A stretch of DNA of 64,000 nucleotides from a virus (taxonomy: Duplodnaviria > Caudoviricetes): IMG/VR virus record IMGVR_UViG_3300037113_000024, positions 685 through 64,684 of that record; one strand, 5' to 3'. Below are positions 149 through 63,223 of the stretch, piece after piece (within the stretch, counting starts at the first letter, position 1; each line of letters opens with the position of its first letter). The translations under genes were made by a program, and so were the position numbers. The notes beneath the pieces were generated by a model that worked only from the letters and a program-made list of their open reading frames with translations, was not told where the DNA came from and searched no databases.

Positions 149-2847
149 GCGACTGGGATGACGAGCAGTACATCGCCTTCGACTTTGAAACGTCGGGCAA
201 GCTGCCCGAGTACGGGCTTCAACCGTGGCGGCTGAGGACGGGCGAGGCATGGATCACGTCGCTCGCCTGGGTCTACCGGGAGAACGGCGAGACGAAGCGT
301 GGAGGAACCATTGACCCAGACCCGCTCTACATCGCCTGCTTTCTGGCGTGGGCTATCGAGAGTGGGCGCACCTTGGTTGGTTGGAACGTCCAGTTTGATA
401 TCCAGTGGTTACTGGCCCTTGGTCTGGACAACCACGTCCACCAGTGCCGGTTCGTTGACGGCATGCTGGTGTGGCGTCACCTTGAGATAGAGCCCGAGTA
501 CGAAACCACGCGGGTGTCGAAGAAGTCCTACAGCCTGAAGACAGCGGTGCGCGAGCACCTGCCTCAGTACGCCGGCTACGAGGATCAGATCGACTTCCAC
601 TCGACCGATCCCGCCGACCGCGTGAAGCTGCACACCTACAACATCCAAGACTGCCTGTTCACGCTGCGCATCACGAAGAAGCTCTACGAACAACTTAAGG
701 CGCGCCAGCGTCAGGCCATGTGGATCGAGGCCCAGTGCCTCGCCATGGTTGCGAAGGCGAACGTGGAAGGGATGCTGCTCGACACGACCTACGCGCAGTG
801 GTTGAGCAAGGTCAATCGGGATGTGGCGGCGAAGAAACTTGCGCTCCTTGCTCCCCACGGCGTGACAGAAGCGGTGGTGCGTTCGCCCAAGCAGCTTCAG
901 GTGCTCATGTACGATGTGTGGAAGCTGCCGGTCCTGAAGGAAACGACAAGCGCCAAGACGGGCACCGTGTCCCGCTCGACCGACAAGACGGTGCTGCACG
1001 AGTTGGCGTTCATCGACGTGCGGGCGAAGGAGCTACGCGCCTACCGCGAGGCGCTGAACAACGACACCAAGTTTGCGATCACTCCAATCAGGAGCGTGCA
1101 GTATTGCGGCGACGGCATGTCGCACCCCAACGCCCGCGTGTTCGGCACCTACAGCGGGCGCATGACCTACTCGTCCAAGCAGGGCAAGGGCGTGACCGAG
1201 CGGCCGACCGGCTTCGCCCTGCACCAAATGCCGCGCATGTCCGAGAAGCAGCCCTTGGACTTCCGCGCCCAGGTGATTGCACCCAAAGGCTACACCATTG
1301 TTGAGTTCGACGCCGCCGGCCAAGAGTTCCGTTGGATGGCCATGGCGGCGAACGACCTAACCATGTTGCAGTTGTGCCAGCCTGGGGAGGATGCGCACAG
1401 CTTCATGGGCGCGAAGATCGCGCGCATGGACTACAAGGAGTTTTTGCGGCGACTGGCGCTGAAGGAGCAGCACATCAAGGACGGGCGTCAGATGGGCAAG
1501 ATCGCCAACCTCTGCATCGCCAAGGGCGAGATCGTGTTGACAGATCGCGGACCTTGCAGTATCGAACTGGTCAAGTCTGATGATCTGGTGTGGGACGGCG
1601 AGGCGTTCGTCGCCCATGACGGCGTGTCGTTCAGTGGTGAACGCTGGACGATTGACAATGATGGTGTGATGGCGACGCCAAGTCATCAGGTTCTCGTGAG
1701 CGGAGCGTGGACGGCGCATGACGAAACACAGCGTATGGGCTGGGCCATTGATCGAGCGTGCGCCCCCAGGCACGCGCTACGGATCGTGGGCGGTATTGCC
1801 CGGCGAGCCGTTCGCGAAGCATGGCGCGATCTACGTGCGGGCGCGCTGCGCTTGTGGGATCGAGCGAGAAGCCAACCTGCGGTTCATGGAGACCGGACGA
1901 TCAACCATGTGCAAGGGCTGCGCTACGCGCTCGCGACATCAGCGGAGTGGCGACCTGATCGTGACCGACGCGGCGACGCGACGCTTGCAGAAGCGAGCCA
2001 GCGCATGGTTTCAACGATGTTGGAACCCGAAGGATCGCTCATGGCGAAACTATGGGGCGCGTGGGATCGAGTGTCGGTTCTCATCAGTGGCGGAAGCCGT
2101 GGCATACATCAAACAAACTCTGCCGCATCCCACGTACCTCAAACTCGACATCGACCGGCGAGACAACGAGGGTCATTACGAGCCTGGAAACTTGCGCTTG
2201 GTTACGCGCAAAGTGAACCTCGCAAATCGGCGCAAGTCGAAACCTACGATATCGTAAACTGTGGCCCGCGAACGCGCTATGCCATCAATGGTAGGATCGT
2301 TCACAATTCCCTTCAGTATCGCACGAGCGCGAAGAAGCTGCGGGTGGTGGCGCGCGTGGACTACGACGTGCCCATGACCATGACGGACGCCTACTTCATC
2401 CACGACCTCTACCGCACCACCTATTGGCGCGTGCCTGAGTATTGGGATCGCCAGATCGCGCTCACGATGCGGCGTCAGTGGGTTGAGACGTTCGCCGGCC
2501 GGCGAGTTCAAGTGAAAGGAGATTGGAACGGCAAGAACGGTTGGAGCATGGGTTCTACTGCAATCAACTACCGCATCCAAGGCACGGGCGCGGATCAGAA
2601 GTACCTCGCCATGATGATGATGCGTGACTATATACACACCATTGGTGCTCGCTTTTTTCTTGACTTGCACGACGGCATCTATCTATTGGTGCCCGACCGA
2701 CTGGCAAAGAGCGCCGCCAAGCACATCAAGAAGGAACTCGATAACCTTCCCTACGCACAAACATGGAACTTCATACCGCCTATTCCCCTGCCTTGGGATT
2801 GTAAGATGGGCAAGACATGGGGCGGCCTGAAAGAGTTCAAACCCTGA
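145..2847 (+). CDS. polA: Family A DNA polymerase with 3'-5' exonuclease domain, intein-containing
   Basis: ExoI DFETSG, GWNVQFD, YNIQD; TYSGRM; motif A EFDAAGQEFR; motif B GKIANL/SLQY split by intein; NYRIQGTGAD; motif C LHDGI. Start moved to ATG 145 because of ATGA coupling. Confidence 0.95.
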   Translation: MSDWDDEQYIAFDFETSGKLPEYGLQPWRLRTGEAWITSLAWVYRENGETKRGGTIDPDPLYIACFLAWAIESGRTLVGWNVQFDIQWLLALGLDNHVHQCRFVDGMLVWRHLEIEPEYETTRVSKKSYSLKTAVREHLPQYAGYEDQIDFHSTDPADRVKLHTYNIQDCLFTLRITKKLYEQLKARQRQAMWIEAQCLAMVAKANVEGMLLDTTYAQWLSKVNRDVAAKKLALLAPHGVTEAVVRSPKQLQVLMYDVWKLPVLKETTSAKTGTVSRSTDKTVLHELAFIDVRAKELRAYREALNNDTKFAITPIRSVQYCGDGMSHPNARVFGTYSGRMTYSSKQGKGVTERPTGFALHQMPRMSEKQPLDFRAQVIAPKGYTIVEFDAAGQEFRWMAMAANDLTMLQLCQPGEDAHSFMGAKIARMDYKEFLRRLALKEQHIKDGRQMGKIANLCIAKGEIVLTDRGPCSIELVKSDDLVWDGEAFVAHDGVSFSGERWTIDNDGVMATPSHQVLVSGAWTAHDETQRMGWAIDRACAPRHALRIVGGIARRAVREAWRDLRAGALRLWDRARSQPAVHGDRTINHVQGLRYALATSAEWRPDRDRRGDATLAEASQRMVSTMLEPEGSLMAKLWGAWDRVSVLISGGSRGIHQTNSAASHVPQTRHRPARQRGSLRAWKLALGYAQSEPRKSAQVETYDIVNCGPRTRYAINGRIVHNSLQYRTSAKKLRVVARVDYDVPMTMTDAYFIHDLYRTTYWRVPEYWDRQIALTMRRQWVETFAGRRVQVKGDWNGKNGWSMGSTAINYRIQGTGADQKYLAMMMMRDYIHTIGARFFLDLHDGIYLLVPDRLAKSAAKHIKKELDNLPYAQTWNFIPPIPLPWDCKMGKTWGGLKEFKP
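1513..2307 (+). mobile_element. Intein (265 aa) in polymerase motif B
   Basis: Block A CIAKGEIVLTDRG, block B ATPSHQV (TxxH), block F/G TYDIVNCG...INGRIVHN followed by Ser+1; removal restores KIANL-SLQY. Confidence 0.93.
1718..2257 (+). CDS. HNH-type (His-Me finger) homing endonuclease nested out of frame in the intein
   Basis: CACG...CKGC Zn motif; QRCWNPKDRSWRNYGARGI; IDRRDNEGHYEPGNLRLVTRKVNLANRR; own ATG with GGAG at 1702-1705. Confidence 0.85.
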   Translation: MTKHSVWAGPLIERAPPGTRYGSWAVLPGEPFAKHGAIYVRARCACGIEREANLRFMETGRSTMCKGCATRSRHQRSGDLIVTDAATRRLQKRASAWFQRCWNPKDRSWRNYGARGIECRFSSVAEAVAYIKQTLPHPTYLKLDIDRRDNEGHYEPGNLRLVTRKVNLANRRKSKPTIS

Positions 2848-2861
2848 CCAAGGAGTATCAG

Positions 2862-3083
2862 ATGAAAGCGTTCCTCTACCACACCAGCAGCGGCCGGATG
2901 TACGAGGTGGTCAAAGTCGAGAACGGCGAGATCACGCTGAAGAACTCGATGGCCACGTTCACCGACACCTACGACAAGGAAAAGTTCAAGCTACAGGGCT
3001 ACATCCGCGTCAAGGGCGAGGACGAGGACGAGGCGCGCGCCGCCGCGGAAGCCCTGGTCGCGGCTGAAGCCGAGGCCGAGTGA
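2862..3083 (+). CDS. Small hypothetical protein
   Basis: AAGGAG RBS then ATG 2862; acidic C-terminus. Confidence 0.75.
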   Translation: MKAFLYHTSSGRMYEVVKVENGEITLKNSMATFTDTYDKEKFKLQGYIRVKGEDEDEARAAAEALVAAEAEAE

Positions 3084-3904: not shown

Positions 3905-4026
3905 TCGGTAGGGGCAGGGTGGGAGGCCGTCGCCATCGACAAGCGCCCCCGTTCGCCGCGATCCTGTAACCGAACCGATCTAGGCCCCGCCGATGGCGGC
4001 GGGGCACCCGACCAAGGATAAGAGCC

Positions 4027-4764
4027 ATGTGGGCGTACCGACTGGGCAAGGCTGACGACAGCCTGCGGCTGCTCAAGCCATTCTCCGCTCTGCGCAAGTG
4101 GCTGCTTCGGCAGCACGAGGTGTGCGGGGACGAGACAGAAACATTGTTCCAACTGGACAACGATCTGAAGGTAGCCCGCAACATGGCGCGCGCCCTTGGT
4201 TGGGACACGTCCCTGGCTTGCCCAGAGCAATGTTTCTCCATGCCTGGACCCGACAGCACGCTGTACGGGTTCGTGATCACCCAAGCCACCAGCGGCCAGC
4301 GCTACGTCGTGTCGCCCGTCGAACTCGCCTACCTTACGAACGAGGTGGACTGGGACGCGCGCATCAACGAGGCTGAGGTGCGCAAGGTGCGGGGAGAACT
4401 CAGCGGAACAGTAGTTGACCGACCGCCGCTGCGCGTGGGCGAGTGGAAGCGCTCGGCCAAGGGCAACATGTGGACCACCATCAACGGGGCTAACTGCACG
4501 GTGTTCGCCAAGAACGATGGCACTGGCTATTGCGCCGTCATCATGAACCCCACGAGCAGCGGCCTGAAGGTCTACACCAGGGCGTTCGAGACAGAGTTGG
4601 AGTGTGCGAACTATGTCATTCAAGCCGACAACTTCTACAACCTTATCCGCGGGTGGCTCGGCAGTCCCGGCGAAGCCAAGTCCACCGATCTCGACAGCCC
4701 CTTCGCAGACATTGACTGGGAAGGAGAGGACGAACGAGGGCTCGATCCCGATATCCCGTTCTGA
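4027..4764 (+). CDS. Hypothetical protein with acidic SSB-like C-terminal tail (DPDIPF)
   Basis: AAGGA RBS; 245-aa ORF. Confidence 0.75.
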   Translation: MWAYRLGKADDSLRLLKPFSALRKWLLRQHEVCGDETETLFQLDNDLKVARNMARALGWDTSLACPEQCFSMPGPDSTLYGFVITQATSGQRYVVSPVELAYLTNEVDWDARINEAEVRKVRGELSGTVVDRPPLRVGEWKRSAKGNMWTTINGANCTVFAKNDGTGYCAVIMNPTSSGLKVYTRAFETELECANYVIQADNFYNLIRGWLGSPGEAKSTDLDSPFADIDWEGEDERGLDPDIPF

Positions 4765-4969: not shown

Positions 4970-5598
4970 AAAACATTATGGTAGACTTAGAGACGTTTGG
5001 AACGAACCCGTTCTCCATGATCCTCAGCATTGGTGCGGTCTACTTCGACCCAACCAAGGTGGGCGACGCGGCGATCAAGAGTTCGTTCTACGTCACCATC
5101 GACCCCATCGCTTCGGGCAAGGCGGGCTTCATGACCGACATGTCCACGATCTGCTGGTGGCTCGACCCGGCCCGCCGGCCGGCGTGGGACGACTTCCTGA
5201 GCGTCGCCCACTTTGAACCGGCGGACGCCCTTCAGGGCTTCAGCCTGTGGATCGGGGGCCTGTTCGATCTGAGCCAGGACCCGACCGCCCACGACGATCT
5301 CGACTTCCCGAAGGACCCGGCGAAGCGCGAGACGTTCGAGCCCTCCACCCAGGTCGCGATGTGGGGCAATGGGCCGGCGTTCGACAACGAAATCCTGCGC
5401 AACGCCTACACGCGAATGAACATGGATGCGCCGTGGAAGCACTTCGGCGACCGCTGCTTCCGCACCATGAAGAACCTGGGCGGCGCGAGCAACCTCGCGC
5501 CCCCGCACGAGGGCCACATCCACAACGCCTTGGTTGACGCCCGTCAGCAAGCGAAGTGGCTCTGCAACATCATCAACACCCTGCACGTCACTATCTAA
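4966..5598 (+). CDS. DEDDh 3'-5' exo(ribo)nuclease (Rv2179c / exonuclease VIII-like domain)
   Basis: MVDLET, ILSIGAV, WGNGPAFD, RCFRT, HNALVDA motifs. Confidence 0.88.
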   Translation: MKNIMVDLETFGTNPFSMILSIGAVYFDPTKVGDAAIKSSFYVTIDPIASGKAGFMTDMSTICWWLDPARRPAWDDFLSVAHFEPADALQGFSLWIGGLFDLSQDPTAHDDLDFPKDPAKRETFEPSTQVAMWGNGPAFDNEILRNAYTRMNMDAPWKHFGDRCFRTMKNLGGASNLAPPHEGHIHNALVDARQQAKWLCNIINTLHVTI

Positions 5599-5607: not shown

Positions 5608-6507
5608 ATGTCTGCGCCTGACGGGGAGCATGCGCCCCACCAACTCATGCAAGCACCCGAGCCGTTGAGCAGCGTCCACATGGCGCTGCTCGAACTGCTC
5701 AACCATTGGCGTAACCGCGCCCACTGGATAGACGTGGAGCGCAGGGCCATAGGGGAACGGCTGCAAGTCTACGACAGCCTGCCCGATATGAAGCCGGCGA
5801 CACCGCCGCCCACGACGCCCGCTGACCAACTGGTGGCCGCCGTGCGAGGCAAGAACACCGAGCTTGAGGTTAAGCTGCAAGAGCAGGGCAACGCCATCCG
5901 CGCGCTGCACGAGCAGAACGTCACGCTGGTCAACGAGAACAACCGGCTGCGTCAGGAGAAGCGCGAACTGGCGCTGCAACTGGATCAGCTTCAGCACGAG
6001 CGGCCCGAGCCGATCAACACGCTGGAAGTCAGCGTCCCGCGCTTCGCCCAGGAGATGGGGCGCTGGTGCAAGGACACGTTCGGATCGGCGATCTTCTTGA
6101 ACCCCCTCGAACGCGCGGCCCGGCTGGTGGAGGAAGCCGTGGAGGTGGCGCAGGCTGTCGGGCTCGACAAGACGTACATCTACAATATCTTCACCATGGT
6201 CTACAACAAAGATCGTGGCGAGTTGAAGCAGGGGCTTGGCGGCGTCATCGTCTGTTGGGCCGTCATGTGCGACGCCCTGGGGATCAACCCGTCCGAAGTC
6301 ATAGTCAAGGCGAAGGACGACTGCTGGACCCGCCAGACCGCCATCAGGAACAAGCTGGCGGCCAAGGTATTGGTTGGAGCGTCACCAACCAAGATCGAGC
6401 ACGCGCCGGGGAACATCCCTGGTCCTAAATACGACGCTGGCGTAACCGCTGCCATCGAAAAGTGGCGCAAGTCTATCGACGGCTCGCCCGTGGCGGGAGG
6501 TAAGTAA
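5608..6507 (+). CDS. Coiled-coil protein with C-terminal MazG-like NTP pyrophosphatase domain
   Basis: Heptad region, then WCKDTFG...ERAARLVEEAVEVAQA...ELKQGLGGV. Confidence 0.6.
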   Translation: MSAPDGEHAPHQLMQAPEPLSSVHMALLELLNHWRNRAHWIDVERRAIGERLQVYDSLPDMKPATPPPTTPADQLVAAVRGKNTELEVKLQEQGNAIRALHEQNVTLVNENNRLRQEKRELALQLDQLQHERPEPINTLEVSVPRFAQEMGRWCKDTFGSAIFLNPLERAARLVEEAVEVAQAVGLDKTYIYNIFTMVYNKDRGELKQGLGGVIVCWAVMCDALGINPSEVIVKAKDDCWTRQTAIRNKLAAKVLVGASPTKIEHAPGNIPGPKYDAGVTAAIEKWRKSIDGSPVAGGK

Positions 6508-6512: not shown

Positions 6513-7196
6513 ATGCAACCGCTTCCGTTCACGTTCTCATCGCTCGACACGTTCAAGAACTGCCCGAGCCAGTTCCACCACAAGTATGTCCTCAAGGACG
6601 TGACGGAGGTGCAGTCGCCTCAGGCGGCTTACGGCGACGACGTTCACCAACTCTTTCAGGAGTACATCGAGGCCGGCGGCGCAAAGCCGCTGCGCCCCGA
6701 CCTGAAGCCGCATCAGGCTAAGCTCGACCAGCTACTCGCCAAGGACGGGATATTTTGGTGCGAAGAGAAGGTGGCGTTCGACAAGCGCCTCCAACCGACC
6801 CGGTACGACAACCCGGATCGGTTGTGGCGCGGCAAGGCGGACTTCCGCCTAGTTGACCGGGTGGAGCAGTCCGCCACCTTGGTTGACTACAAGACGGGGA
6901 AGAAGCACGACAAGTGGGCGCAGTTGGCAATCTACGCCCTGCACACCTTCGCGCTGTTCCCCAAGGTGCAAATCGTCAACGCCCAGTTCTATTGGACCAA
7001 GGACTTGACGACAACCAAGAAGGTCTGGGGGCGCGACGATATCGAGGGCCTGTGGCTCATGTTCGCGGGCGACCTAGCCCAGTACAAGCAAGCGTTCAAG
7101 ACGGACACATGGCAGGAACGGCCCTCAGGGCTGTGCCGAGGCTGGTGCCCGGTCACTACCTGCCAGCACTGGCAACCGAAGCGGGAGTTCAGATGA
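6513..7196 (+). CDS. PD-(D/E)XK exonuclease (RecB/Cas4-like)
   Basis: FSSLDTFKNCP, GDDVH, GKAD, VDYKTGK, QLAIYA, C-terminal CRGWCPVTTC. Confidence 0.9.
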   Translation: MQPLPFTFSSLDTFKNCPSQFHHKYVLKDVTEVQSPQAAYGDDVHQLFQEYIEAGGAKPLRPDLKPHQAKLDQLLAKDGIFWCEEKVAFDKRLQPTRYDNPDRLWRGKADFRLVDRVEQSATLVDYKTGKKHDKWAQLAIYALHTFALFPKVQIVNAQFYWTKDLTTTKKVWGRDDIEGLWLMFAGDLAQYKQAFKTDTWQERPSGLCRGWCPVTTCQHWQPKREFR

Positions 7197-10169: not shown

Positions 10170-10562
10170 ATGGGTGACGTCACATGGGAGAGGATGATCA
10201 GCGCCTACATCAAAATGCGCGATGCGCGCCACGCGCTGAAGGCCGAGTACGAGAAGAAGGACAAGGAGCTTAGGGACAACCAAGAGCAGCTTGAGGATTT
10301 CATGCTCGGGCAGATGAACACGAGCGGCGTCACCAGCCTGAGGACGCCGCACGGGACGGCCTACCGCACAGAAACAATGGTCCCTACGGGGTCCGACTGG
10401 ACAGCGTTCTATGCGTGGGTCAAGCAGACCAATGGTTTCGACTTTCTCTTTCGCCGCATCAAGGCTGACGCGGTGAAGGATTACATGGATCAGCACGACG
10501 GGGAGGTGCCGCCCGGCGTCGCTGTTTACTCCAAGCTCGGCGTCACTATCAGAAGGAAGTAA
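10170..10562 (+). CDS. Conserved phage replication-region protein
   Basis: YIKMRD...SLRTPHGT...DWTAFYAWV...VPPGV pattern common beside phage helicases. Confidence 0.75.
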   Translation: MGDVTWERMISAYIKMRDARHALKAEYEKKDKELRDNQEQLEDFMLGQMNTSGVTSLRTPHGTAYRTETMVPTGSDWTAFYAWVKQTNGFDFLFRRIKADAVKDYMDQHDGEVPPGVAVYSKLGVTIRRK

Positions 10563-12279: not shown

Positions 12280-15111
12280 ATGAACAGTAAGGACTTCCTC
12301 AAGCTGGTCTGGCCGGACCAGGGGTTTTACTGCGTCGCCACCCCTAACGCTACACGCACCGGCTACCGGCATTATGTCTTCGTCACCTTGGATGACGCCT
12401 ACTCGCACGCTCGTTCGCTCTACAATCAGTTCGACGTGTACTTCGGCGTTCATGCTCACATCAACCAATTCGAGTACAACCAACGCTATAACCGCAACAC
12501 GCCGTGCCGCAAGAAGCACAACATGCGCGCGGCGCGGTGCCTGTTCCTCGATCTGGACGTGGGCAAGGGGACGAAGGAGAAGCCGAAGTATCCCACCCAG
12601 GCCGCCGCGCTCGCCGCGCTGGCCAAGCTCATCTTCCAGACGAACCTACCCGAGCCCGTCGTTGTCTCATCGGGCAACGGCGTGCACGTCTATTGGCCGT
12701 TCGAGGATGAGGTGCCGTCCGAGGATTGGAGGCAGCACGCCGCCAATCTGAGGCTGCTGCTCGACAAGCACGGCATGCTCTACGACCCCTCGCGCACGAC
12801 CGACATTACCAGCGTGCTGCGGGTGCCGGCGACGCTCAACCACAAGGACCCGGCTAACCTCAAGAAGGTGGAGATATTGTTCACGGGCGAGAAGTTCCCT
12901 TCCGTGAACACCACCCTGTTCGGCATGCTCGCGCTTCAGACCGCGGGCCTGCAACGGCTGCGCACACCGACGCAGGGCATGGCCAAGGACATGTCGAACA
13001 TCACGCCGGGTCTGTTGGGCTTCCCGCCCACTGACGCGGACGACGTGGCCGCCGAGTGCGAACAGATGAGGATATTCCGTGACACGAAAGGAAACATACC
13101 GGAACATCATTGGTACGCCGGCCTGGGCATCCTAGGGTTTTGCACCAACGGTGCACAGGTTGCGCACCAGTGGTCCTCAGGGCACCCGAACTACTCGGCG
13201 CAGGAAACCGACAATAAGCTTGCACAGTGGAAAGCGAACGGATCGGTCACCTCCTGCGCCAAGCTCGGCGCTGACGGCGCGCCGAATGTCTGTGCCCGGT
13301 GCCCGCACTTCGGCGGCCCGTACAAGAACCCCATCGTCATCGTCAACAAGAAGCCCCTGACGCAGGCGTTCGTGGCCGCGACTTCCACGATGCAGCCTGC
13401 TCCCACGATCCTGCCGCCCCACCCCTACAGCCGGCTCGCCGGCATGGGCGTGGTCAAGGACACGGGCGTGGGCGCACCTGCGGTGGTCATGAAGGACGTA
13501 GACTTGTATCCGATCGCCACCGCTTCAGGCGTGATCAACGGCCTCAAGATCAACAACGGAGTATCAACCTGGGTGGCTCGCGAGCACAACGTCACGCAGC
13601 AAACGTTATCAATTCAGTTCGATGTGCCCAACGAACTGCTCAGCGACCCGAAGGCCATGAGCGTGCACTTCGCCGCGCACGGCCTCTACCACCCTGCAAC
13701 AGTTGAAGTGGTTCGCTACATGAGCGCGTATCTCAAAGAGCTAAAGCGTCACGTCGGCATGACGGTGCAGCACCCGCATATCGGCTGGAAGGGCAAGGAC
13801 GATCTGTCCGAGTTCGTCCTGGCCGGCAAGGTCATCGACCCCAAGGGCGACGTGCACGAGTGCACCATGGCCCCGTCAACCAAGATCGCCACGGACGGTA
13901 TGGGGACCGGCGGCACGCTGCCGCATCAGGTCGCCGCGCTGTCGTTCTACAACCACCCGGCCTACTCGGCGTCGAAGTTCATGTTCCTGGCCTCACTGTC
14001 CTCGCCGCTGTTCATGGCGACCGGCCACCACGGCGTTGTCATCAACGCGAGCGGTGATAGCTCGGCCGGCAAGAGCACGGCCCTGCGCGCGGCTGCGGCG
14101 GTGTGGGGCGACCCTGACAAGTTCGTCGTCAACGGCACAGCCCGCGGCATGTCGGCAATGGCCAGGGACCTTCGTATGACGGTCATGGGCAACCTGCCCA
14201 CCATGATTGACGAAATAACGCACATGGACCCCGACGACGCGCGAGCCACGGTCATGAGCGTGTCGCAGAACCAGTTACGCACGACGCTCACTTCAGGCCG
14301 CGAGGTGCGCGAGAAGCCCACCGGGTTCCGCTCCGCGCCCCTCCTGTCCACCGGCAACTCGGACCTGCATCAGACCATCGGTATCGACAACAAGGCCGCC
14401 GGCACCGCGGGCTCAGCGCGCATCCTGCAACTGCCGTTCGATCTCGCCGCGCCGCATACGAAGGATCAGATCGACGCCTTCAACCACAACCTGTCCGCGA
14501 ACTTTGGGTGGATCGGGGCCTACATCCTGAGCAAGGCCATGCCCTGCATGCCGCTGCTGTTCGAGAGCGTGCAGGAGATGGTGAGGCAGATCAACCAAGA
14601 CACACTGGCGAAGGGCGTCGAGCGCTTCACGGTCGCGGCGGCTGCGCCGGTGTTCGTGATGGGCGCGTTCGCCGCCTACCACGGCATCATCGAATGGGAC
14701 ATTGACGAGCTATATCACTGGTTCCTGACCGTGCAGCACCCGGCGCTGCGAGCGCAGATGACTTCCCAGGCGCAGGCTGTCGCGCCCGACAACGTGATCC
14801 GCGAGTTCCTGAGCGCCAACGTCAACGACACCGTTGAGACTGACGAGCACGACCCGAGCAATCTGCCCATGCCCATGGTGCGCAACAGGGTCGTGGTGCA
14901 TGTGCGGCGCGAGATTAACGAGGTGTGGGTCAGCCAGGATGAGCTTAAGGACTGGTGCAGCGCGAAGGGCATCCCCTACGAGAGCATGATCGTAGACCTG
15001 AAGAAGGGTGGCCTTATACTGAAAACCAATGCTCGTAAGTACATGGGGCAAGGCACGAAGTATCAACTCGCGCGTAACCGCGTGGTCGTCCTCGCCAAGG
15101 ACAAGCTCTGA
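12280..15111 (+). CDS. Primase-helicase (AEP/RepB-like primase, PriCT, DUF927 helicase)
   Basis: FLDLD, SSGNGVHVYW, VLRVPATLNHK, Cys cluster CAK...CARC, Walker A GDSSAGKST, IDE. Confidence 0.9.
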   Translation: MNSKDFLKLVWPDQGFYCVATPNATRTGYRHYVFVTLDDAYSHARSLYNQFDVYFGVHAHINQFEYNQRYNRNTPCRKKHNMRAARCLFLDLDVGKGTKEKPKYPTQAAALAALAKLIFQTNLPEPVVVSSGNGVHVYWPFEDEVPSEDWRQHAANLRLLLDKHGMLYDPSRTTDITSVLRVPATLNHKDPANLKKVEILFTGEKFPSVNTTLFGMLALQTAGLQRLRTPTQGMAKDMSNITPGLLGFPPTDADDVAAECEQMRIFRDTKGNIPEHHWYAGLGILGFCTNGAQVAHQWSSGHPNYSAQETDNKLAQWKANGSVTSCAKLGADGAPNVCARCPHFGGPYKNPIVIVNKKPLTQAFVAATSTMQPAPTILPPHPYSRLAGMGVVKDTGVGAPAVVMKDVDLYPIATASGVINGLKINNGVSTWVAREHNVTQQTLSIQFDVPNELLSDPKAMSVHFAAHGLYHPATVEVVRYMSAYLKELKRHVGMTVQHPHIGWKGKDDLSEFVLAGKVIDPKGDVHECTMAPSTKIATDGMGTGGTLPHQVAALSFYNHPAYSASKFMFLASLSSPLFMATGHHGVVINASGDSSAGKSTALRAAAAVWGDPDKFVVNGTARGMSAMARDLRMTVMGNLPTMIDEITHMDPDDARATVMSVSQNQLRTTLTSGREVREKPTGFRSAPLLSTGNSDLHQTIGIDNKAAGTAGSARILQLPFDLAAPHTKDQIDAFNHNLSANFGWIGAYILSKAMPCMPLLFESVQEMVRQINQDTLAKGVERFTVAAAAPVFVMGAFAAYHGIIEWDIDELYHWFLTVQHPALRAQMTSQAQAVAPDNVIREFLSANVNDTVETDEHDPSNLPMPMVRNRVVVHVRREINEVWVSQDELKDWCSAKGIPYESMIVDLKKGGLILKTNARKYMGQGTKYQLARNRVVVLAKDKL

Positions 15112-21061: not shown

Positions 21062-22157
21062 TCATGGAGGGGATGAACTCGATGTTGTTGAAGCTGAAGT
21101 CCTGCCCGTCCACCGTCTCGACGTGCCAGCCCATAAAGCGAGATTTGAGGCCCTTCCCGATCCTGAACTTGGTGCTCATCAGCCCTGGGTTGGAAGAGGT
21201 CTGATAGGAGAACTCACGCCCGTCGCCGGTGTCGAGCTTGAGCAACCAATCCGGTGTGCTCCCTTCGCCTTGCCCGGTGACGCCCACATAGACGCCCTTC
21301 AGGCCGGCGAACTTGCCGCCGTTGGGTTCGAGATAGCCGCCGGTCAGCGAAGCGATGACCTTCACGCCATCGTCGCTCGGGCCATTGAGTTCGTAGATGC
21401 CGTTCGCATCCGCCGCGATATACTTGCGACCAATGGTCGCGAAGCTGTTGTAGTTGAAGCCGCGGTACTCGGTGACGGCTTGGGTGCGGGTGTTGACCGC
21501 CCATGCGGTGCTGTCCCCTGAGAGGGTCCACGTCTCGCCCGCGATCACGAGATCGCTGAGCGTGACCTGATAGGCTCCCTGCAGCAGGGGCGTGTCCGAA
21601 GCCAGGGCCGTGGAGACGACTACGACGTGCGCCGTGCGCACAGCCACATAGTACTCGCCGGCCGCGGCGCTGTCGGTCAGGACGGCGTTCGCCTTGTAGG
21701 TGACCGTCACGCTGTCGTGGGCGGCTGCGCTGTCGCTCCACCCCTTGGCGGTGAGGACTGTCCAGCTATCGGTCGCCTCGGCGCTCGTGGCCTGGGACAG
21801 GTGGAAATGCGCGGTCGCGCTCGCGCTGTCGGTCGCTCGGACCTTCTCACTCACCCGCGTGTTGCGCGTGAGGGTGTAGCTCTCCGTCGCGTTGGCGCTG
21901 CTCGACTGGGAGATAACCCGCTTGATCAACCAAGCGTCGCTCGCCTTGGCCGCGTCGGCGAAGGTCGCCCCGCCTGACTTAGCCCCGTACGAGGCGCTAT
22001 CGGTCGCCTTGGCGCTGTCCGAGATCAGGCCGCCGGGGTAGAACTTGAACGTAAAAACGCCACTGACGGACACGGTGTCCGTCAGCGCAATGCCGGTGAC
22101 GAGGGTCAAATTCTCGGACGCGAGTGCGCCGTCTGCGCCCGAGATTTGATCGACCAT
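21045..22157 (-). CDS. Structural protein with SA-x-ATDS repeats
   Basis: Repeats such as DSAKATDS and TSAEATDS; C-terminal tail-like domain (WAVNT...YRGFNYNSF). Confidence 0.7.
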   Translation of the reverse strand: MVDQISGADGALASENLTLVTGIALTDTVSVSGVFTFKFYPGGLISDSAKATDSASYGAKSGGATFADAAKASDAWLIKRVISQSSSANATESYTLTRNTRVSEKVRATDSASATAHFHLSQATSAEATDSWTVLTAKGWSDSAAAHDSVTVTYKANAVLTDSAAAGEYYVAVRTAHVVVVSTALASDTPLLQGAYQVTLSDLVIAGETWTLSGDSTAWAVNTRTQAVTEYRGFNYNSFATIGRKYIAADANGIYELNGPSDDGVKVIASLTGGYLEPNGGKFAGLKGVYVGVTGQGEGSTPDWLLKLDTGDGREFSYQTSSNPGLMSTKFRIGKGLKSRFMGWHVETVDGQDFSFNNIEFIPSMSGRRV

Positions 22158-42408: not shown

Positions 42409-42437
42409 GCGTAGCAACCAAGCCGTGGGAGGCTGGC

Positions 42438-47282: not shown

Positions 47283-48788
47283 CTATCGCGCGTGGTAGTT
47301 GGGTGGCTTCCACTGGCGCGGTGGTGACCTGAACCCGCCCTTGGACGAGATACCATACTTTTCTTCGCGGAGCACACCCTTATGGAAGTAGCGGCAGAAG
47401 TACCCGAAAGCGTCCCCTACGTGGGAAAATGGGTTCTTGTCGGGTTGCGATCCCTTGAGGATATCCTTCTTGAGGTCGGCCGTATAGCGCCAGCCGCCTT
47501 TCAGCGCGCGGATCAGGACTGGGCACCCGCGGGGGTCGATCTGGACTGCGCCCGTGCCCTGAATGAGCTTGGATGTGAAGTGCTCTATGGCGTTCAAGCG
47601 AAGTGGGAAGCGGTTATTGCTCTCAACCTCAACTTGGAAATAACGTTTGAATATTTTGACTACCGAGCCTTCGTCAGTTGGGGTTCGGTTGGCCGCGGCC
47701 GGGTCAGGCACGATGATGACTTCCGCGCCGTGAAAGTCCTGACGCAGAACTGGGATCAGACGTTCCTCAATCAGGCGTTGCGCGCCGTAGCCCTCCTGCA
47801 CCAGTTCCCGGTAGATGTTGATCCGCCCGTCATAATCCTCCTGCCCGAGCAGCATCGCACTCCCCGCGATGCCGGGGTCAAGCGATACAATCAGGGGCTT
47901 GTGCTTATTCCACTGTAGTGGCCGCCTCGCGACATGTATCTCTTCACGGAACTGCGGGACCACGGGCTGGCCCGCGATGCTGAAGCCCCACTGGGCTTCG
48001 ATGAACTGCTTCACCCAAGCATCGCTCTTGCCCTTCGCGGCTTGGCTGTAGTAGCCCCTGTTGCCCGGCAAGTTCTCAAGGTTCTCGGCCTGCTCGCTGA
48101 ACCCGCTTGGTTGGTGGAAGTAGATCGCGTTCGGCGTCGAGCCGTAGCGCATGACGTGCTCGGCTTTCCTGCGGTTGAACTCGTCCGCGTCGGCGGTCCA
48201 CTTGAGCATGGCGTCGCCGTGCAGGTAGTCGAACCACCAATTATCCTCGGTGCTCGGGTTGGACGAGCCCCACATGCCCCAGATGGTCACGAGCGTGCCG
48301 TCAGGCTGCTTATACCGGCCCAAACGCGCAGAGAGAGCGTCCACGATGGGCTTCGGGATTTCCACGAACTCGTCCAGGATCGCGAAGTTGATTTCGAGCG
48401 AGAGCACGCGCGCCACGTCGTCGGGCGTATCCAGCGGGCGAAAGAGAACTTCGCACACCACATCGGCGTACTTGAGCGTAAAGATTTTGTCTGTGGCGTT
48501 CCACTTGCCGGCAATGCCGTCTTTGAACCAGTACCCCCAGGACACCAATGTTGTGTCCTTCAACTGGGGCATCGTATTACGAACGACCACCGCGCGCGTG
48601 CGCCTGATCCCGTCCTGGCTCGGGGCCTGCTTCTTCGCCAGATGGATCAGCTTCATAAAGAGCGCGGTCGTCTTGCCCGAGCCAACTGGACCAATGATCC
48701 AGTTGTAGAACAGTTGGCTCGTCTTATGCGACCGTATGAACGACCTTATGGTGAGCGGTGGGGTGTAGTCGATGCTGATCTTCGCCAT
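47283..48788 (-). CDS. terL: Terminase large subunit
   Basis: GPVGSGKT, VVRNTMPQLKDTT, ILDEF, SSNP, SLDPG, PDPAA, SHVGDA. Confidence 0.95.
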   Translation of the reverse strand: MAKISIDYTPPLTIRSFIRSHKTSQLFYNWIIGPVGSGKTTALFMKLIHLAKKQAPSQDGIRRTRAVVVRNTMPQLKDTTLVSWGYWFKDGIAGKWNATDKIFTLKYADVVCEVLFRPLDTPDDVARVLSLEINFAILDEFVEIPKPIVDALSARLGRYKQPDGTLVTIWGMWGSSNPSTEDNWWFDYLHGDAMLKWTADADEFNRRKAEHVMRYGSTPNAIYFHQPSGFSEQAENLENLPGNRGYYSQAAKGKSDAWVKQFIEAQWGFSIAGQPVVPQFREEIHVARRPLQWNKHKPLIVSLDPGIAGSAMLLGQEDYDGRINIYRELVQEGYGAQRLIEERLIPVLRQDFHGAEVIIVPDPAAANRTPTDEGSVVKIFKRYFQVEVESNNRFPLRLNAIEHFTSKLIQGTGAVQIDPRGCPVLIRALKGGWRYTADLKKDILKGSQPDKNPFSHVGDAFGYFCRYFHKGVLREEKYGISSKGGFRSPPRQWKPPNYHAR

Positions 48789-52916: not shown

Positions 52917-53840
52917 ATGGCTATGGTGCTTCAGAACGTGAAAGTGCTTCGCTCGTTCGGCGACTGCGCCGCGTACTACGAGAAAGCCCACCAGTGGCGT
53001 ACCCTCGCGGGACGCGAGGAAGCGTATAGCGAGCGCTCGGGCATCCAGATTGAGCCGGGCTTCAACGCCCACCCGCAAGGCTCGCGGGCGCTCGACCCAC
53101 ACAACCACAAGCGCTACCTCAGCATCCGGCCCATCGAGAACGGTGAGGGCTACGCCTGTCGCTACCGCAACACCGACGTGGTGGTCTGGCGCTCGGGATC
53201 GAACCCGAACACCGAGGGACGAGGTGAGACGGTTACCGTGCGTGGCTACACGTCACGCTCGACCGCGCTCATGGCCGAAAACCTCACGCCTCTCGGGATC
53301 GACTTCAAGATGCACTACGACGACGCCTACTTCGCCTTCGTTAGGGGGCGCGTCTATGGCTTCGACAAAACCATCACGTTCGCGGCGCGCAACGAATGGT
53401 TGCCCGTGGATCACACCTACAAACTCACGTTTATTGACTACGCCTCGCCCTCGCTTCAGAACGCGCTCAACAAAACCCGCTACAAAGACTTCGTGGCTTG
53501 GTTGAACGCGGTCATGTCGTTCGATCAGTTGCCCGTGTCCTACAACAATGGTTCGCCACGCGACATAATCGAGCGCGCCGACGACGAGATCGCAACCCAT
53601 GGTGTGCTCGGTTTGCTACAGGACGTATCAAAGTGGGAGCACCTGAAGAGCTTCCACGGTTGGATAGACCACGAGAACCCAAGGAGCGTGCTGGCTCGCG
53701 CCGACAGGATCAAGCGCGAGATACGCGAGCACATCTACCGCGAGTTCAAGGCTGTTCCCGTGCGCGAGGTGGAGTGGTACGATGCAGACCAGTTCGACCG
53801 CCAGCGCCACCTCCACGAGAAGTATTCGTGGGCGCTTTAA
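52917..53840 (+). CDS. Hypothetical early protein (paralogue of 56031-56873)
   Basis: GGAG RBS; shared motifs with 56031-56873; contains site 5 at 53614-53630. Confidence 0.8.
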   Translation: MAMVLQNVKVLRSFGDCAAYYEKAHQWRTLAGREEAYSERSGIQIEPGFNAHPQGSRALDPHNHKRYLSIRPIENGEGYACRYRNTDVVVWRSGSNPNTEGRGETVTVRGYTSRSTALMAENLTPLGIDFKMHYDDAYFAFVRGRVYGFDKTITFAARNEWLPVDHTYKLTFIDYASPSLQNALNKTRYKDFVAWLNAVMSFDQLPVSYNNGSPRDIIERADDEIATHGVLGLLQDVSKWEHLKSFHGWIDHENPRSVLARADRIKREIREHIYREFKAVPVREVEWYDADQFDRQRHLHEKYSWAL

Positions 53841-56873: not shown

Positions 56874-57226
56874 ACATCATGACCGAAGCCGTACCCAACT
56901 ACCTATGGGACAATAGGGACCAAGAGAGAGCCAAAGCGCATGGGTGGGTTGTCGAGACGGTGGGCTTCGTCGGCCATGGCGAGGCACGCAACTTCGGCGG
57001 CATCGCCATTGACGACAGCCTCAGCTTCGGCAGCTATTCGTTCTACTGGATTGACCCCATGGTCATGGGCAAGACTTGGACCGATAGCCTCGTGGACTTC
57101 ATCGCTGAAGAAGCAGCCAAGGGCGTGCCTCTCTATGAGAAGGCTTGGTTGCTGTACTGCTACATAGACCTGCGCGGCAAGCTGCGCAGGGCTACCCAGA
57201 TCACAGCATGGGGTGACCCCTGCTGA
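56870..57226 (+). CDS. Early protein, W-x3-D-x3-A-GW family
   Basis: LWDNRDQERAKAHGWVV...GVPLYEKAW. Confidence 0.75.
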   Translation: MNIMTEAVPNYLWDNRDQERAKAHGWVVETVGFVGHGEARNFGGIAIDDSLSFGSYSFYWIDPMVMGKTWTDSLVDFIAEEAAKGVPLYEKAWLLYCYIDLRGKLRRATQITAWGDPC

Positions 57227-58497: not shown

Positions 58498-59622
58498 ATG
58501 CAAACTCTCGATAGCGTCGGCGTAGCCGAGTTCATTAAGCATGTCGCGATTAAGCTCGATCAGCCTGTCATGGTTGTCGGCACGTTCGGTTCGGCCAAGA
58601 GCGCCGTAACCAACCAAGTCGCGAGCGACCTTGACAGCCCCGAAGCGCTCGACGCGCTCCTGGGCGACCGCAACCAGTCTTTGATACCGACCGTATCAGA
58701 CGACGGCGACACGCTCTACACCAAGTTCACCGGGACGATACTCTGCGACGTTCGCCTCGCTCAATACGAGAGCGTCGATCTCCGCGGCTTCCCCGGCGTC
58801 AACAAGGCGACGGGCATGACGGTGTGGCATGCGCCGAGCACGCTTCCCTTCGTCGGCAACGACGACTTCCCCGACGACAAGATCATCATCCTGTTCCTCG
58901 ATGAGATCACGTCGGCGACGCCGCCTGTCTTCAGCGTGGCCTACCAGTTGGTCAACGAGCGCCGCGTCGGCGAGCATGTGCTGAAGCCCAACGTTCGCGT
59001 GGTCTGCGCGGGCAACCTCGAAAGCGACAAGGGCGTCGTCAACCGCATGCCCATGCCGTTGTGCAATCGCCTGACCTGGGTGCAGCAGGTCGTCAACCAC
59101 AAGTCGTGGGCCGACTGGGCGCAGAGCGTCGGCATCACGCCGGTGGTCATCGCGTTCATCCACTTCAAGCCCAACCTACTCATGACCTACGACCCGGCCA
59201 AGGCCGAGAAGGTGGTCGCGACGCTGCGCACTTGGGAGAAGGCGGCTGCGTACTTGGTTGACGACATGCCCGAAGAGATCAAGTGGGCGGCGTGCGCCGG
59301 CTCGATTGGTCAGGGACCGGCGACCGAGTTGCGCGCCTTCATTGATATCTGGCAGAAGGTGATCCCGCCCAAGCAGATCGCTGCCGACCCCGAGGGCACG
59401 CCGGTGCCGACCGAGGCGAGCATGCGATATGCGACTGCTGTATCTATCTCGGGAGCAATGTCGGGCAAGCTGCTCGCGCCGCTCTATCAGTACCTCAAGC
59501 GTCTGCCGCCTGAGTTCATCGTGCTGGCGTGGCAGTTGGCGCAGAAGCGCGACCAGCGGCTCTACAACACGCCCGAGTTTATGGATTTCACGAAAAGATA
59601 TAGAAGCATATTCAATATGTAA
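58498..59622 (+). CDS. MoxR-like AAA+ ATPase
   Basis: Walker A GTFGSAKS, DLRGFP, Walker B LFLDE, CAGN, PLCNRL, TLRTWE; contains site 9 at 58682-58698. Confidence 0.88.
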   Translation: MQTLDSVGVAEFIKHVAIKLDQPVMVVGTFGSAKSAVTNQVASDLDSPEALDALLGDRNQSLIPTVSDDGDTLYTKFTGTILCDVRLAQYESVDLRGFPGVNKATGMTVWHAPSTLPFVGNDDFPDDKIIILFLDEITSATPPVFSVAYQLVNERRVGEHVLKPNVRVVCAGNLESDKGVVNRMPMPLCNRLTWVQQVVNHKSWADWAQSVGITPVVIAFIHFKPNLLMTYDPAKAEKVVATLRTWEKAAAYLVDDMPEEIKWAACAGSIGQGPATELRAFIDIWQKVIPPKQIAADPEGTPVPTEASMRYATAVSISGAMSGKLLAPLYQYLKRLPPEFIVLAWQLAQKRDQRLYNTPEFMDFTKRYRSIFNM

Positions 59623-59647
59623 GTATAGAGTTTCGGAGTAACCGAAA

Positions 59648-60049: not shown

Positions 60050-60060
60050 CAAAACCATGG

Positions 60061-60077
60061 TGATACGCGCCGTATCA
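60061..60077. promoter_or_regulatory. Operator-like site 10
   Basis: TGATACgcgccGTATCA, same spacer as site 1. Confidence 0.85.
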
Positions 60078-60098
60078 ACCGAAGGAAAGGAATATGTT

Positions 60099-60602: not shown

Positions 60603-60828
60603 CGACTACGACTGGACGGTGCTCGCTGCCTGCCAACTAGGCGGCGTGCGTCGCCGGTATAAGGACACGCCGTCCGGCATCTTGGTTGAATACTTCACCA
60701 TGGGTGACACGGACGTGACGCAAAGCATCACCCGCCTAGAGCGGGCGGGCAGGATCGAACCACATCATATCACGTTGGGTGTGGACAAAGAGGGTCTGAA
60801 GGCCGCCATGAGAAGGGTAGTGAAATGA
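60586..60828 (+). CDS. Small hypothetical protein (winged-helix-like)
   Basis: LSDYDWTVLA...VTQSITRLERAGRI. Confidence 0.6.
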   Translation: MGVRLSDYDWTVLAACQLGGVRRRYKDTPSGILVEYFTMGDTDVTQSITRLERAGRIEPHHITLGVDKEGLKAAMRRVVK

Positions 60829-62039
60829 GCACCGCAGCAATCAAGCTAGACACCTACGACAAGGCGCGCTCGCAACTGCTGATCCGTCAGCCGTTCTTCG
60901 CGAGCGTCGTCCTGTCCACTGAGTGGATACCGGACGAGAAGATACCCACGGCCTGCACCGACATGGTGAAGGTGTGGTACAATCCCAAGTTCATTGACGA
61001 CTTGGGCGTGGACCACGCGATGTTCGTGCTGGTGCATGAGATCATGCACATCATCCTGAAGCACGGGCTGCGCCGCGGCTCACGCAAGCCGATCCGTTGG
61101 AACAAAGCGTGCGACTACGCGATCAACCAAGAGTTGGTGGACAGCGGGCTGTCCATGCCGGACAGCGGGCTGATCGACAAGGCGAAGTACGGCGGCATGA
61201 CGGCCGAGCAGATATACGATATCCTTACGCAGGAGAAGGAGAAGGGCGGCGGCAAGGGCAAGGGCAAGCCCCCGCCGGGCACGAAGGTTCAGCCGGGTCA
61301 GCCGGGCGACCGCCCCGATGACGACGACGACGTTACCGACCTGGGCGAGATGGGCGCGGACGTGATGACGCCCGGCGAGCGGGACGGCAACGAGCCGACC
61401 GAGGCTGAGGCGCGTCAGATCAGCGCGAGCATCGACGGCAAGGTGGCGCAGGCTGCGACCATGGCGCGCGCCGCGGGCAAGCTGCCGGCGAACATCGCGC
61501 TCTTGGTTGACGGCGTGCTCAATCCTCCGCAGCCCTGGGAGATTGTGCTGCGCGAGTTCATGACGCGCATGGTGCAGCAGAATGAAACGTGGTCGCGCCG
61601 CAACCGGCGCTTCACTCCTATCCTACCCACGTCGTTCGATGTGGGCATGGGAGAGTTGGTCATCATCGGCGACACATCGGGCTCGATGATGGTGGACAAA
61701 ATCTTTGCGCAGATCGCGGTGGAGATCAATCACTGCCGCGAGTACGTGAAGCCCGAGCGGACGCGCGTGGTCTGGGCCGACTACGCCGAGTGCTCGCATG
61801 AGCAGGTGTTCGAGCCGGACGAACAGGTGGTGCTCGAACCCAAGGGCGGCGGGGGCACAGACATGCGCCTGCCTCTCAGGTATGTGGAGAAGTTCCACCC
61901 CGACGTTGTGATCCTGATCACGGACTGCGAGACGCCGTGGCCTTCACAGGAGACACCCTACCCGCTGATCGTGGCGAGCACGACCAATCAGAAGTGTCCC
62001 GACTGGGCGCTTCGCCTGCAACTGAGGACGCATGCCTGA
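60825..62039 (+). CDS. DUF2201-like metallopeptidase + vWA domain protein
   Basis: PTACTD, HEIMH, WNKACDYAIN, DTSGS MIDAS, GGGGTD, ITD. Confidence 0.9.
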   Translation: MSTAAIKLDTYDKARSQLLIRQPFFASVVLSTEWIPDEKIPTACTDMVKVWYNPKFIDDLGVDHAMFVLVHEIMHIILKHGLRRGSRKPIRWNKACDYAINQELVDSGLSMPDSGLIDKAKYGGMTAEQIYDILTQEKEKGGGKGKGKPPPGTKVQPGQPGDRPDDDDDVTDLGEMGADVMTPGERDGNEPTEAEARQISASIDGKVAQAATMARAAGKLPANIALLVDGVLNPPQPWEIVLREFMTRMVQQNETWSRRNRRFTPILPTSFDVGMGELVIIGDTSGSMMVDKIFAQIAVEINHCREYVKPERTRVVWADYAECSHEQVFEPDEQVVLEPKGGGGTDMRLPLRYVEKFHPDVVILITDCETPWPSQETPYPLIVASTTNQKCPDWALRLQLRTHA

Positions 62040-62322: not shown

Positions 62323-62336
62323 TACGTGTTGTATCA
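62320..62336. promoter_or_regulatory. Operator-like site 11
   Basis: TGATACgtgttGTATCA; TGA is the upstream stop codon. Confidence 0.85.
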
Positions 62337-62356
62337 ACCGACCAAGGAGTAGAGTT

Positions 62357-63223
62357 ATGCAGATTGATCTCGCCTCGCGCATGATGCTCGTCAACGTCTC
62401 GATCTCTGTGTGGGAGGGGCGCAAGCTGGACAAGCGCATCACCCGCAAGACCATCGCTGACAACCACGTCAACGACGAGAAGGGGCTGCGCGTCAACAAG
62501 CTGCTCATCGACAGCGACGCCTTCAAGGAGGTGCAGGCCACGTCGTCCGAGGTGCGTGACTTCGTGAAGACGAACACGCTGCCGTGGTACGACAAGGGCT
62601 ACCGCGCTCTGCTGCGCCAGCGCTATCAGGCGTTCGTGGAAAAGTTCCACATCAAGGAGCAGAACTGGTGGGCCGCTGTCGATCACTTCGTCCGCGTCAA
62701 GTATCCGGCTGAGGTGGCGAAGGCCAGCTTCCGACTAGTCGATGCGTTCGTGGAGAGCGACTACCCCGGCGTCAACGAACTGCGGGACCGCTTCAAGCTG
62801 ACGCTGGACATTGCGCCCATCGCCGGCGCGGATGACTTCCGCGTCAAGCTGGACGAGGCCACCGTCACAGACATACAGGACAAGATCAGGGCGGCGACCG
62901 AGCAGCGCGTGCACGACGCCATGGTGGATGTGTGGGAGCGCGTCGAGAAAGCGGTGCAGCACTTCGCCGCCCGCACCGGCCCCGACATTGAGCGCTTCCA
63001 TGCCACCACCGTGACGAACATGGTGGAGTTGGTTGACCTGCTGCCGGCGCTCAACCTGACCAACGATCCCAAGCTGAAGGAGATGGCGACCAAGCTGCGC
63101 AGCACGCTGTGCACCTACGACCCGAAGGACCTGAAGAAGGACCTGTCCGTCCGCAAGGCGGCCAACCAAGACGCGGCCAAGATCATGGAAGACATGGAAT
63201 CCTTTATGCAGGCGTTCCGCTGA
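62357..63223 (+). CDS. DUF3150-like protein
   Basis: LVNVSISVWEGRKLD...NKLL...TLPW...DYP...LNLTNDP; usual partner of AAA/vWA genes. Confidence 0.75.
   Translation: MQIDLASRMMLVNVSISVWEGRKLDKRITRKTIADNHVNDEKGLRVNKLLIDSDAFKEVQATSSEVRDFVKTNTLPWYDKGYRALLRQRYQAFVEKFHIKEQNWWAAVDHFVRVKYPAEVAKASFRLVDAFVESDYPGVNELRDRFKLTLDIAPIAGADDFRVKLDEATVTDIQDKIRAATEQRVHDAMVDVWERVEKAVQHFAARTGPDIERFHATTVTNMVELVDLLPALNLTNDPKLKEMATKLRSTLCTYDPKDLKKDLSVRKAANQDAAKIMEDMESFMQAFR

Follow-up and report, generated by a model that had tools for sequence, protein, structure and literature searches.

The genome of an uncultured phage carries a strong, real excess of one eight-base word, CTTGGTTG (CAACCAAG on the opposite strand), and this excess is under selection. 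We analyzed a window of 64,000 bases, positions 685-64684 of a single virus contig of 64,684 bases (IMG/VR record IMGVR_UViG_3300037113_000024; 62% G+C). The window holds 41 exact copies by direct count, 19 on the plus strand and 22 on the minus strand, and the whole contig also holds 41, a density of 0.63 per kilobase (kb) or one copy per 1.6 kb. Copies on the same strand avoid one another, and the word's core, TTGGTTG, recurs in related phages mostly at different positions. We tentatively propose, at somewhat less than an even chance, that the word is the template recognition sequence of the phage's own archaeo-eukaryotic primase (AEP)-type primase-helicase.

An eight-base word in excess over chance and codon choice

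The count of 41 lies far above every expectation we computed. An earlier sequence-only reading had listed at least 41 exact copies; every position it gave holds the word and no copy lies elsewhere. Its estimate of about two copies by chance agrees with dinucleotide shuffles, which gave a mean of 1.64 and a largest value of 5 (0 of 100 reached 41). Markov models of orders 0 to 4 predict 1.6, 1.7, 5.1, 5.7 and 9.5 copies. Codon-preserving shuffles, which that reading had suggested as a check, yielded a mean of 5.49 (standard deviation 1.47, maximum 10) when synonymous codons were permuted inside gene calls (n=300) and of 5.03 (maximum 10) when codon order was shuffled (n=300), and both expectations are inflated because the codons of CTTGGTTG itself sit in the pool. 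Gene calls throughout are a crude pick based on G+C at third codon positions, and open reading frames shorter than 60 amino acids (aa) are left out of the codon tests.

Compared with 60 synonymous permutations, CTTGGTTG is the top outlier of all octamers (z 15.5), followed directly by six of its own overlapping sub-words. The first unrelated octamer with a high count, CGCCGGCC, reaches z 6.5 with 41 copies versus 15.4 expected, and no other octamer family in this comparison comes near the enrichment of CTTGGTTG, so the count is neither as expected nor shared by many octamers alike. TTGGTTG occurs 64 times in the window and CTTGGTT 45 times, leaving 23 copies of the 3′ 7-mer beyond the octamer; the sequence-only reading had noticed such extra copies of the core but put them at about 15. 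It had also pointed to an inverted pair near 6386, and a partial inverted copy does lie a few bases off. The copies, in window positions and all by direct count, are as follows.

372..379, plus strand, CTTGGTTG
4195..4202, plus strand, CTTGGTTG
5051..5058, minus strand, CTTGGTTG
5529..5536, plus strand, CTTGGTTG
6386..6393, minus strand, CTTGGTTG, with the partial inverted copy a few bases away
6878..6885, plus strand, CTTGGTTG
7012..7019, minus strand, CTTGGTTG, same place kept in the related phage L189
9716..9723, plus strand, CTTGGTTG
10277..10284, minus strand, CTTGGTTG
13877..13884, minus strand, CTTGGTTG, within the primase gene
14592..14599, minus strand, CTTGGTTG, within the primase gene
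17531..17538, plus strand, CTTGGTTG, same place kept in L189
17924..17931, minus strand, CTTGGTTG, same place kept in L189
19256..19263, minus strand, CTTGGTTG
20565..20572, plus strand, CTTGGTTG
21927..21934, minus strand, CTTGGTTG
23915..23922, minus strand, CTTGGTTG
24213..24220, plus strand, CTTGGTTG
25351..25358, minus strand, CTTGGTTG
27007..27014, minus strand, CTTGGTTG
28287..28294, minus strand, CTTGGTTG
28860..28867, plus strand, CTTGGTTG
29340..29347, minus strand, CTTGGTTG
31474..31481, minus strand, CTTGGTTG
31910..31917, plus strand, CTTGGTTG
34698..34705, minus strand, CTTGGTTG
35460..35467, minus strand, CTTGGTTG
36455..36462, minus strand, CTTGGTTG
37734..37741, plus strand, CTTGGTTG
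39628..39635, plus strand, CTTGGTTG
41025..41032, plus strand, CTTGGTTG, outside gene calls
42415..42422, minus strand, CTTGGTTG, outside gene calls, last minus copy ahead of a 16-kb gap
48106..48113, plus strand, CTTGGTTG, sole copy in the head-packaging module
53497..53504, plus strand, CTTGGTTG
57144..57151, plus strand, CTTGGTTG
58611..58618, minus strand, CTTGGTTG
59253..59260, plus strand, CTTGGTTG
60681..60688, plus strand, CTTGGTTG, outside gene calls
61124..61131, minus strand, CTTGGTTG
61502..61509, plus strand, CTTGGTTG
63163..63170, minus strand, CTTGGTTG

Selection acts on the word through synonymous codon choice. We call a place codon-compatible if its protein sequence permits the octamer by synonymous codons; within gene calls, 40 of 79 such places (51%) carry CTTGGTTG, whereas control words with the same letters in permuted order (n=30) fill 0-11% of their compatible places. 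As the sequence-only reading had described, the copies are mostly inside genes, in both orientations and in different frames: 38 of the 41 are intragenic, 21 on the coding strand and 17 antisense, three are intergenic, and all three frames of both the coding and the antisense strands are occupied. The word draws on minor codons, with TTG accounting elsewhere for 14.5% of leucine codons, GTT for 11.7% of valine and CAA for 21% of glutamine. The same reading's remark that the copies need disfavoured codons thus holds for these three and fails for AAC, the preferred asparagine codon here (86%). At aligned places L189 encodes the same residues through common codons, for example CTG GTG instead of TTG GTT. 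The permutations, the usage of compatible places, and the spacing and turnover described below lend good support to the idea that the coding sequence carries a selected signal at the level of DNA.

Two other accounts were rejected. A longer repeat or a protein motif does not fit because the flanks are random, with no conserved flanking base found among the 41 copies, and because six frame and orientation classes occur. Dispersed operators or stoperators do not fit a word that lies within genes in 38 of 41 copies and that, at 21 coding to 17 antisense, is not oriented with transcription.

Usage of the word drops between 40 and 56 kb, a region that comprises the genes for head and packaging as well as the beginning of the early arm; 2 of 13 compatible places carry it there, compared with 38 of 66 outside this region. 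Phages that share 77-85% identity in the capsid protein are 30-60% identical in their other proteins. Together, the word-poor region and the conserved capsid may reflect a recent exchange of this module.

Strand-wise spacing and turnover among relatives

No same-strand gap is shorter than 600 base pairs (bp) (0 of 41; the smallest is 626 bp). Uniform placement gives a mean of 6.9 such gaps (P 0.001, 2000 draws), and random subsets of 78 codon-compatible places give 4.57 (P 0.0028, 5000 draws); of the 39 compatible places left empty, 13 have a copy less than 600 bp away on the same strand. Copies on opposite strands are placed independently, down to 134 bp apart, and 9 of the 19 plus-strand sites have a minus-strand site inside 600 bp (random mean 6.4). 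Because same-strand copies avoid each other while the two strands are independent, CTTGGTTG is read on each strand separately, and another copy nearby adds nothing. A protein on duplex DNA would not give such a strand-wise pattern. Whatever the reader, spacing of this kind is a useful diagnostic for telling single-strand reading of a word apart from binding to duplex DNA.

The mean spacing is 3.4 kb on the plus strand and 2.9 kb on the minus strand. We dropped the notion of overall even spacing, as only the lack of short same-strand gaps is robust: the coefficient of variation of the spacing is 0.82 for all sites (P 0.14), 0.57 for the plus strand (P 0.007) and 1.11 for the minus strand. The copies have no hairpin context, the minimum free energy of 68-nucleotide (nt) windows around them being -21.0 versus -20.0 in 400 random windows (P 0.34), and their central 8 nt are not more often unpaired.

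Four related phages keep the core TTGGTTG, mostly at different positions. It occurs 23 times in the 22.8 kb of L189 (3.6 expected; primase 50% identical), 26 times in the 32.7 kb of G410, 37 times in 53 kb of G411 and 34 times in the 66 kb of G001, where TTGGTTT occurs 35 times; the commonest 8-mer in G411 is TTTGGTTG, with 13 copies versus 1.3 expected. These four phages realise 22-35% of their compatible TTGGTTG places and G000 realises 40%; usage is 3-7%, the control level, in G002, G003, G004, G005, G412 and G413. Copies found at an aligned place number 5 of 18 in L189, 4 of 39 in G001 and 2 of 33 in G411. Of the synonymous conservation that the sequence-only reading had proposed to look for, the enrichment of the core is kept and the positions have mostly turned over, and selection therefore keeps a density of the word rather than particular sites. 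Flank preferences also vary among carriers, with C at -1 in G000 and T or G at +1 in G001.

A candidate reader and its rivals

We infer the phage's primase as the candidate reader because the word resembles the site of the NrS-1 primase-polymerase (prim-pol) and because the pattern recurs in coliphage CAjan, where the primase carries an NrS-1-type domain. On this proposal CTTGGTTG, with its core TTGGTTG, would be held by selection at a set density on each strand and read strand by strand by the AEP primase-helicase encoded at 12280-15111, which would start primers at the word for discontinuous DNA synthesis. The probability that we assign to it stays below one half; it was absent from the candidates of the sequence-only reading and is the best supported here. 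Further points in its favour are the selection on the word and its strand-wise reading, the AEP primase-helicase that the phage encodes, the distribution of the core among relatives described above, and 656 sampled bacterial genomes in which CTTGGTTG stays within about 1 copy per 10 kb. The pattern expected of lagging-strand priming, with sites on both strands at kilobase spacing per strand, is present (19 plus, 22 minus, no same-strand gap under 626 bp). The gene and its predicted domains are as follows.

12280..15111, plus strand, primase-helicase of 943 aa with an AEP primase domain, a helical domain with four cysteines (Cys4), DUF927 and a P-loop helicase part (Pfam DUF927, PHROG primase/helicase families)
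12280..12948, plus strand, predicted AEP catalytic domain, residues 1-223 (AlphaFold2 model, mean pLDDT 77)
12985..13407, plus strand, predicted helical domain, residues 236-376, with invariant C260, C326, C338 and C341 (invariant columns; weak fold matches)

The 943-aa protein has 86 database homologues. Its AEP domain model matches S-2L PrimPol (6zp9) with a VIA-align Z of 17.4 and a root mean square deviation of 2.7 over 175 aligned residues, and RepB' (3h25) with a Z of 13.2; D91, D93 and H136 are invariant. The model firmly assigns the N-terminal part of the protein to the AEP primases. For the helical domain all fold matches are weak, the best being to primase accessory domains: the iron-sulfur (Fe-S) domain of PriL, the large subunit of the eukaryotic primase (6di2, Z 4.9), and PriX (Z 4.6). 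The domain is a possible template-binding module, and its four invariant cysteines may form a metal or Fe-S site.

According to two reports, the NrS-1 prim-pol requires the template word 5'-TTTGGTTA-3' (PMC8718748, PMC7102993). CTTGGTTG and TTTGGTTA share the central TTGGTT, 6 of 8 bases, and by our own arithmetic a six-base match at a given register and orientation arises by chance about once in 4,096; TTTGGTTG of G411 matches TTTGGTTA in 7 of 8 bases, differing only in the last. The proposed reading would resemble NrS-1 in that a phage AEP enzyme with a fused helicase reads an eight-base word on a single-stranded template. The two enzymes also differ: NrS-1 is described there as having no zinc finger, whereas the window primase has four invariant cysteines, and no NrS-1-type helix-bundle domain (HBD) is detectable in the window primase. 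The NrS-1 word was defined biochemically in those accounts, and the phage studied here is known from sequence alone.

The parallel in CAjan (NC_028776.1, bases 1-50000) is close. Its word TGTGGTTA occurs 41 times (22 plus, 19 minus; 2.2 expected) with no same-strand gap below 954 bp, hence none under 600 bp versus a random mean of 8.5, and the strands are independent. The CAjan primase, gp63, matches Pfam PF22763, the NrS-1 polymerase HBD, at E 1.6e-6. Only 2 copies of TGTGGTTA occur in a 50-kb sample of E. coli K-12, and the CAjan word is therefore phage-intrinsic. Both phages thus have a non-palindromic eight-base word in 41 copies (in the first 50 kb of CAjan and in the 64.7-kb genome here) that is spread about equally over the strands, never pairs within 600 bp on one strand, ignores the opposite strand and contains TGGTT. 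They differ in that no Pfam NrS-1 HBD was detected in the window primase and the two primases are not alignable by profile, and also in host and phage lineage. Our literature search found no paper on words of the CTTGGTTG or TGTGGTTA type as genome-wide phage or primase signals.

Other phage primases also start at specific template words. The gp4 primase of T7 reportedly has a short recognition site. For the GP55 primase of lactococcal phage 1706 the site is reported as 5'-CCAAC-3' (PMC12205980). CCAAC resembles part of the complement of CTTGGTTG when G follows the word (CCAACCAAG, 11 of 41 copies), but the strand this implies is opposite to that of the NrS-1-like reading. The GP55 and T7 words are 3-5 nt long and frequent by chance, so no seeding of the genome is needed.

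Several observations weigh against the primase as the reader. NrS-1 itself is reported to have its word just twice, once on each strand, presumably as the mark of an origin (PMC7102993), versus 41 copies genome-wide here. The helical domain of the window primase matches NrS-1 residues 191-294 only at Z 2.8, a Pfam search at E up to 0.01 gave no NrS-1 HBD in the window primase, profile comparison (hhalign) with CAjan gp63 found nothing (probability 0.1), and NrS-1 is not among the matches listed for the N-terminal model. We found no change of strand along the genome that would resemble replichores (P 0.31 for the octamer and P 0.36 for the 7-mer by the best two-break statistic). A 16-kb stretch of the minus strand (42.4-58.6 kb) has no full octamer; with the 7-mer included, the largest gap is 6.0 kb. 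Same-strand spacing is absent for the 6- or 7-mer core in G001 and G411. Most phages with more distant primases of the same family have no dominant octamer. In a quick IQ-TREE phylogeny of 30 chosen primases, that of the window included, plus 15 of the other 85 database homologues, the four carriers with a readable primase fall in one 14-row clade, which speaks for the primase (support 93 in the Shimodaira-Hasegawa-like approximate likelihood ratio test; G410, a fragment that has no primase gene, is left out of this statement), yet the primase of G004, a phage without the word, nests inside the carriers' clade. Four tail-region genes, and no others found, are shared by the carriers G000, G001 and G411 but missing from G002, G003 and G005, and because carrier status tracks them, a shared host factor would explain the distribution as well. 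The 656 bacterial genomes that we searched for the word are a thin sample (4 metagenome-assembled genomes that contain relatives, together with 401 from the class to which G008 belongs and 251 from the phylum of G006); seven of them are flagged as unpublished, and none of our conclusions depends on a single one of these.

The main rival, which we consider unlikely, is a Chi-like signal at which a helicase-nuclease, of RecBCD or AddAB type in the host or encoded by the phage, would be attenuated, sparing phage DNA at breaks. A short, asymmetric word that is read per strand, and whose density is kept while positions turn over, is what such a signal would look like. Chi is likewise an asymmetric octamer read on a single strand and held in phage coding sequence by selection, and its excess in phages without RecBCD inhibitors is documented by Bobay, Touchon and Rocha 2013 (PMC3784561). 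The Chi density given there for Rec- coliphages, and for their host too, is about 0.2 per kb, however, and CTTGGTTG at 0.63 per kb is three times denser. The co-variation of carriers with tail genes suggests a common host range, and the lack of the word in G004, which has a related primase and a differing GC content (0.56), fits a host-side cause as well. Against this cause, no sampled genome shows an excess of the word. The sequence-only reading had proposed to look for enrichment in candidate host genomes, and none of the 656 comes near the phage density (at most about 0.1 per kb, 422 copies in 4.1 Mb). The word also shows no polarity along the genome (P 0.31), its strands are equal (19 and 22), its flank preferences differ between G000 and G001, and the parallel word of CAjan is not the Chi of E. 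coli and is rare in the 50-kb E. coli sample. A Chi-like site had headed the candidates of the sequence-only reading.

That reading had also suggested loading sites for a phage protein that coats or protects DNA. Duplex docking sites for a phage protein that would organise, protect or mark the genome we judge improbable. The high copy number independent of frame and the many early genes of no known family are compatible with them, and in L105, an IMG/VR locus of 17.3 kb whose primase belongs to the same family (28% identical), the palindrome GTTTAAAC is present in 13 copies versus 0.4 expected. A duplex-bound protein should nevertheless ignore strand, whereas spacing here is kept within a strand only and opposite copies come as close as 134 bp; furthermore, apart from the tail genes we found none whose presence follows the word, and the copies show neither clustering nor an intergenic link (38 of 41 are intragenic). 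Programmed nicks or base modification in virion DNA, of the T5/phiKMV type or motif-specific, would suit a short, asymmetric word at many places, but nothing speaks directly for them, a modification target needs neither enrichment nor spacing, and among the 31 window proteins scanned, which are a part of its genes, no methyltransferase, nickase or modification family was recognised; we regard such sites, also among the candidates of the sequence-only reading, as very improbable. Least probable is a tag hyper-abundant in the host genome and acquired by phages (like the uptake sequences DUS and USS, or from a repair bias), since the observation in its favour, that carrier status goes with tail genes, is met by 656 genomes with nothing above about 0.1 per kb, a head-packaging module nearly free of the word in the same genome (2 of 13 places) and a same-strand spacing unlike the outcome of mutational drive. 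The remaining weight falls to something else.

If the primase reading is true, this phage would be a clear case in which the specificity of a replication enzyme is written genome-wide at the expense of preferred codons. NrS-1, the one biochemical precedent, has two copies that may mark an origin; the reading would extend it to a priming code spanning the genome, and replication mode, recent module exchange and the co-evolution of enzyme and word would become readable from sequence. A fuller version seems to us doubtful: in this lineage of peat and freshwater phages the eight-base word would be the obligatory start of an Fe-S-type AEP primase, the genome would be seeded per strand by synonymous recoding to rare codons, flanks would drift between relatives, and some relatives would have a second, clustered class of ACACTGAT-type words. 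Were it true, the specificity of a replication enzyme rather than protein coding would shape hundreds of synonymous sites, and newly imported modules such as the head genes would be visible as word-poor islands.

The phage and other repeated words

DNA of the phage was found in public runs (22 listed, all stored as assembled contigs) labelled as peat, pond and freshwater metagenomes. Besides the primase-helicase, the window encodes a family A DNA polymerase, an SNF2-type helicase, a PD-(D/E)XK nuclease, a 3'-5' exonuclease-like protein, terminase, portal and major capsid proteins and a protein of 2271 aa. No tRNA genes were found in the phage, hence no host clue from tRNAs. The nearest named phages are distant; the capsid protein of Pseudomonas phage Rollin is 43% identical, and the first 50 kb of Rollin gave no dominant dispersed octamer. 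A megablast of the window's 6.8-kb gene against phages returned no match. At least 80 IMG/VR loci encode a capsid protein with 77-85% identity, and one further locus encodes an identical protein.

Other words are enriched in the window (expected counts in brackets): GTATCAAA with 13 copies (0.9), AGGGCTAC with 15 (1.8), CAAGCTGC with 23 (4.1) and AACAATGG with 12 (1.6). Some relatives carry a second class of words, of which we found no counterpart in the window: AACACTGAT(G) in 42 copies in G001 and 12 in G410, (G)ACACTGAC in G002, with 25 copies of ACACTGAC and 63 of its core CACTGAC, and CATCATTGAT-type words in G411. In G001 and G002, the two tested, these words are clustered rather than spaced, and that of G001 has 13 same-strand gaps under 600 bp versus 7.8 expected. 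BLAST presence and absence revealed no gene that tracks this class. The word CCCACCGG of G003 was rejected as an analogue of CTTGGTTG, as its 42 copies lie on one strand in a few dense clusters at about 33.5-53 kb, like tandem repeats in late genes.

Several relatives (L031, L037, L044, L075 and L123) have words of the GCTGGCG/CGCCAGC type among their most frequent enriched octamers, for example 13 copies in 20 kb of L031. These words presumably resemble the Chi word of Pseudomonas, and GC-rich words are also common by composition. In G001, overlapping 8- and 9-mers of 17-22 copies each assemble into a word of about 14 bases, ATCTGGGTAGCTAC, which may be a promoter or other regulatory repeat.

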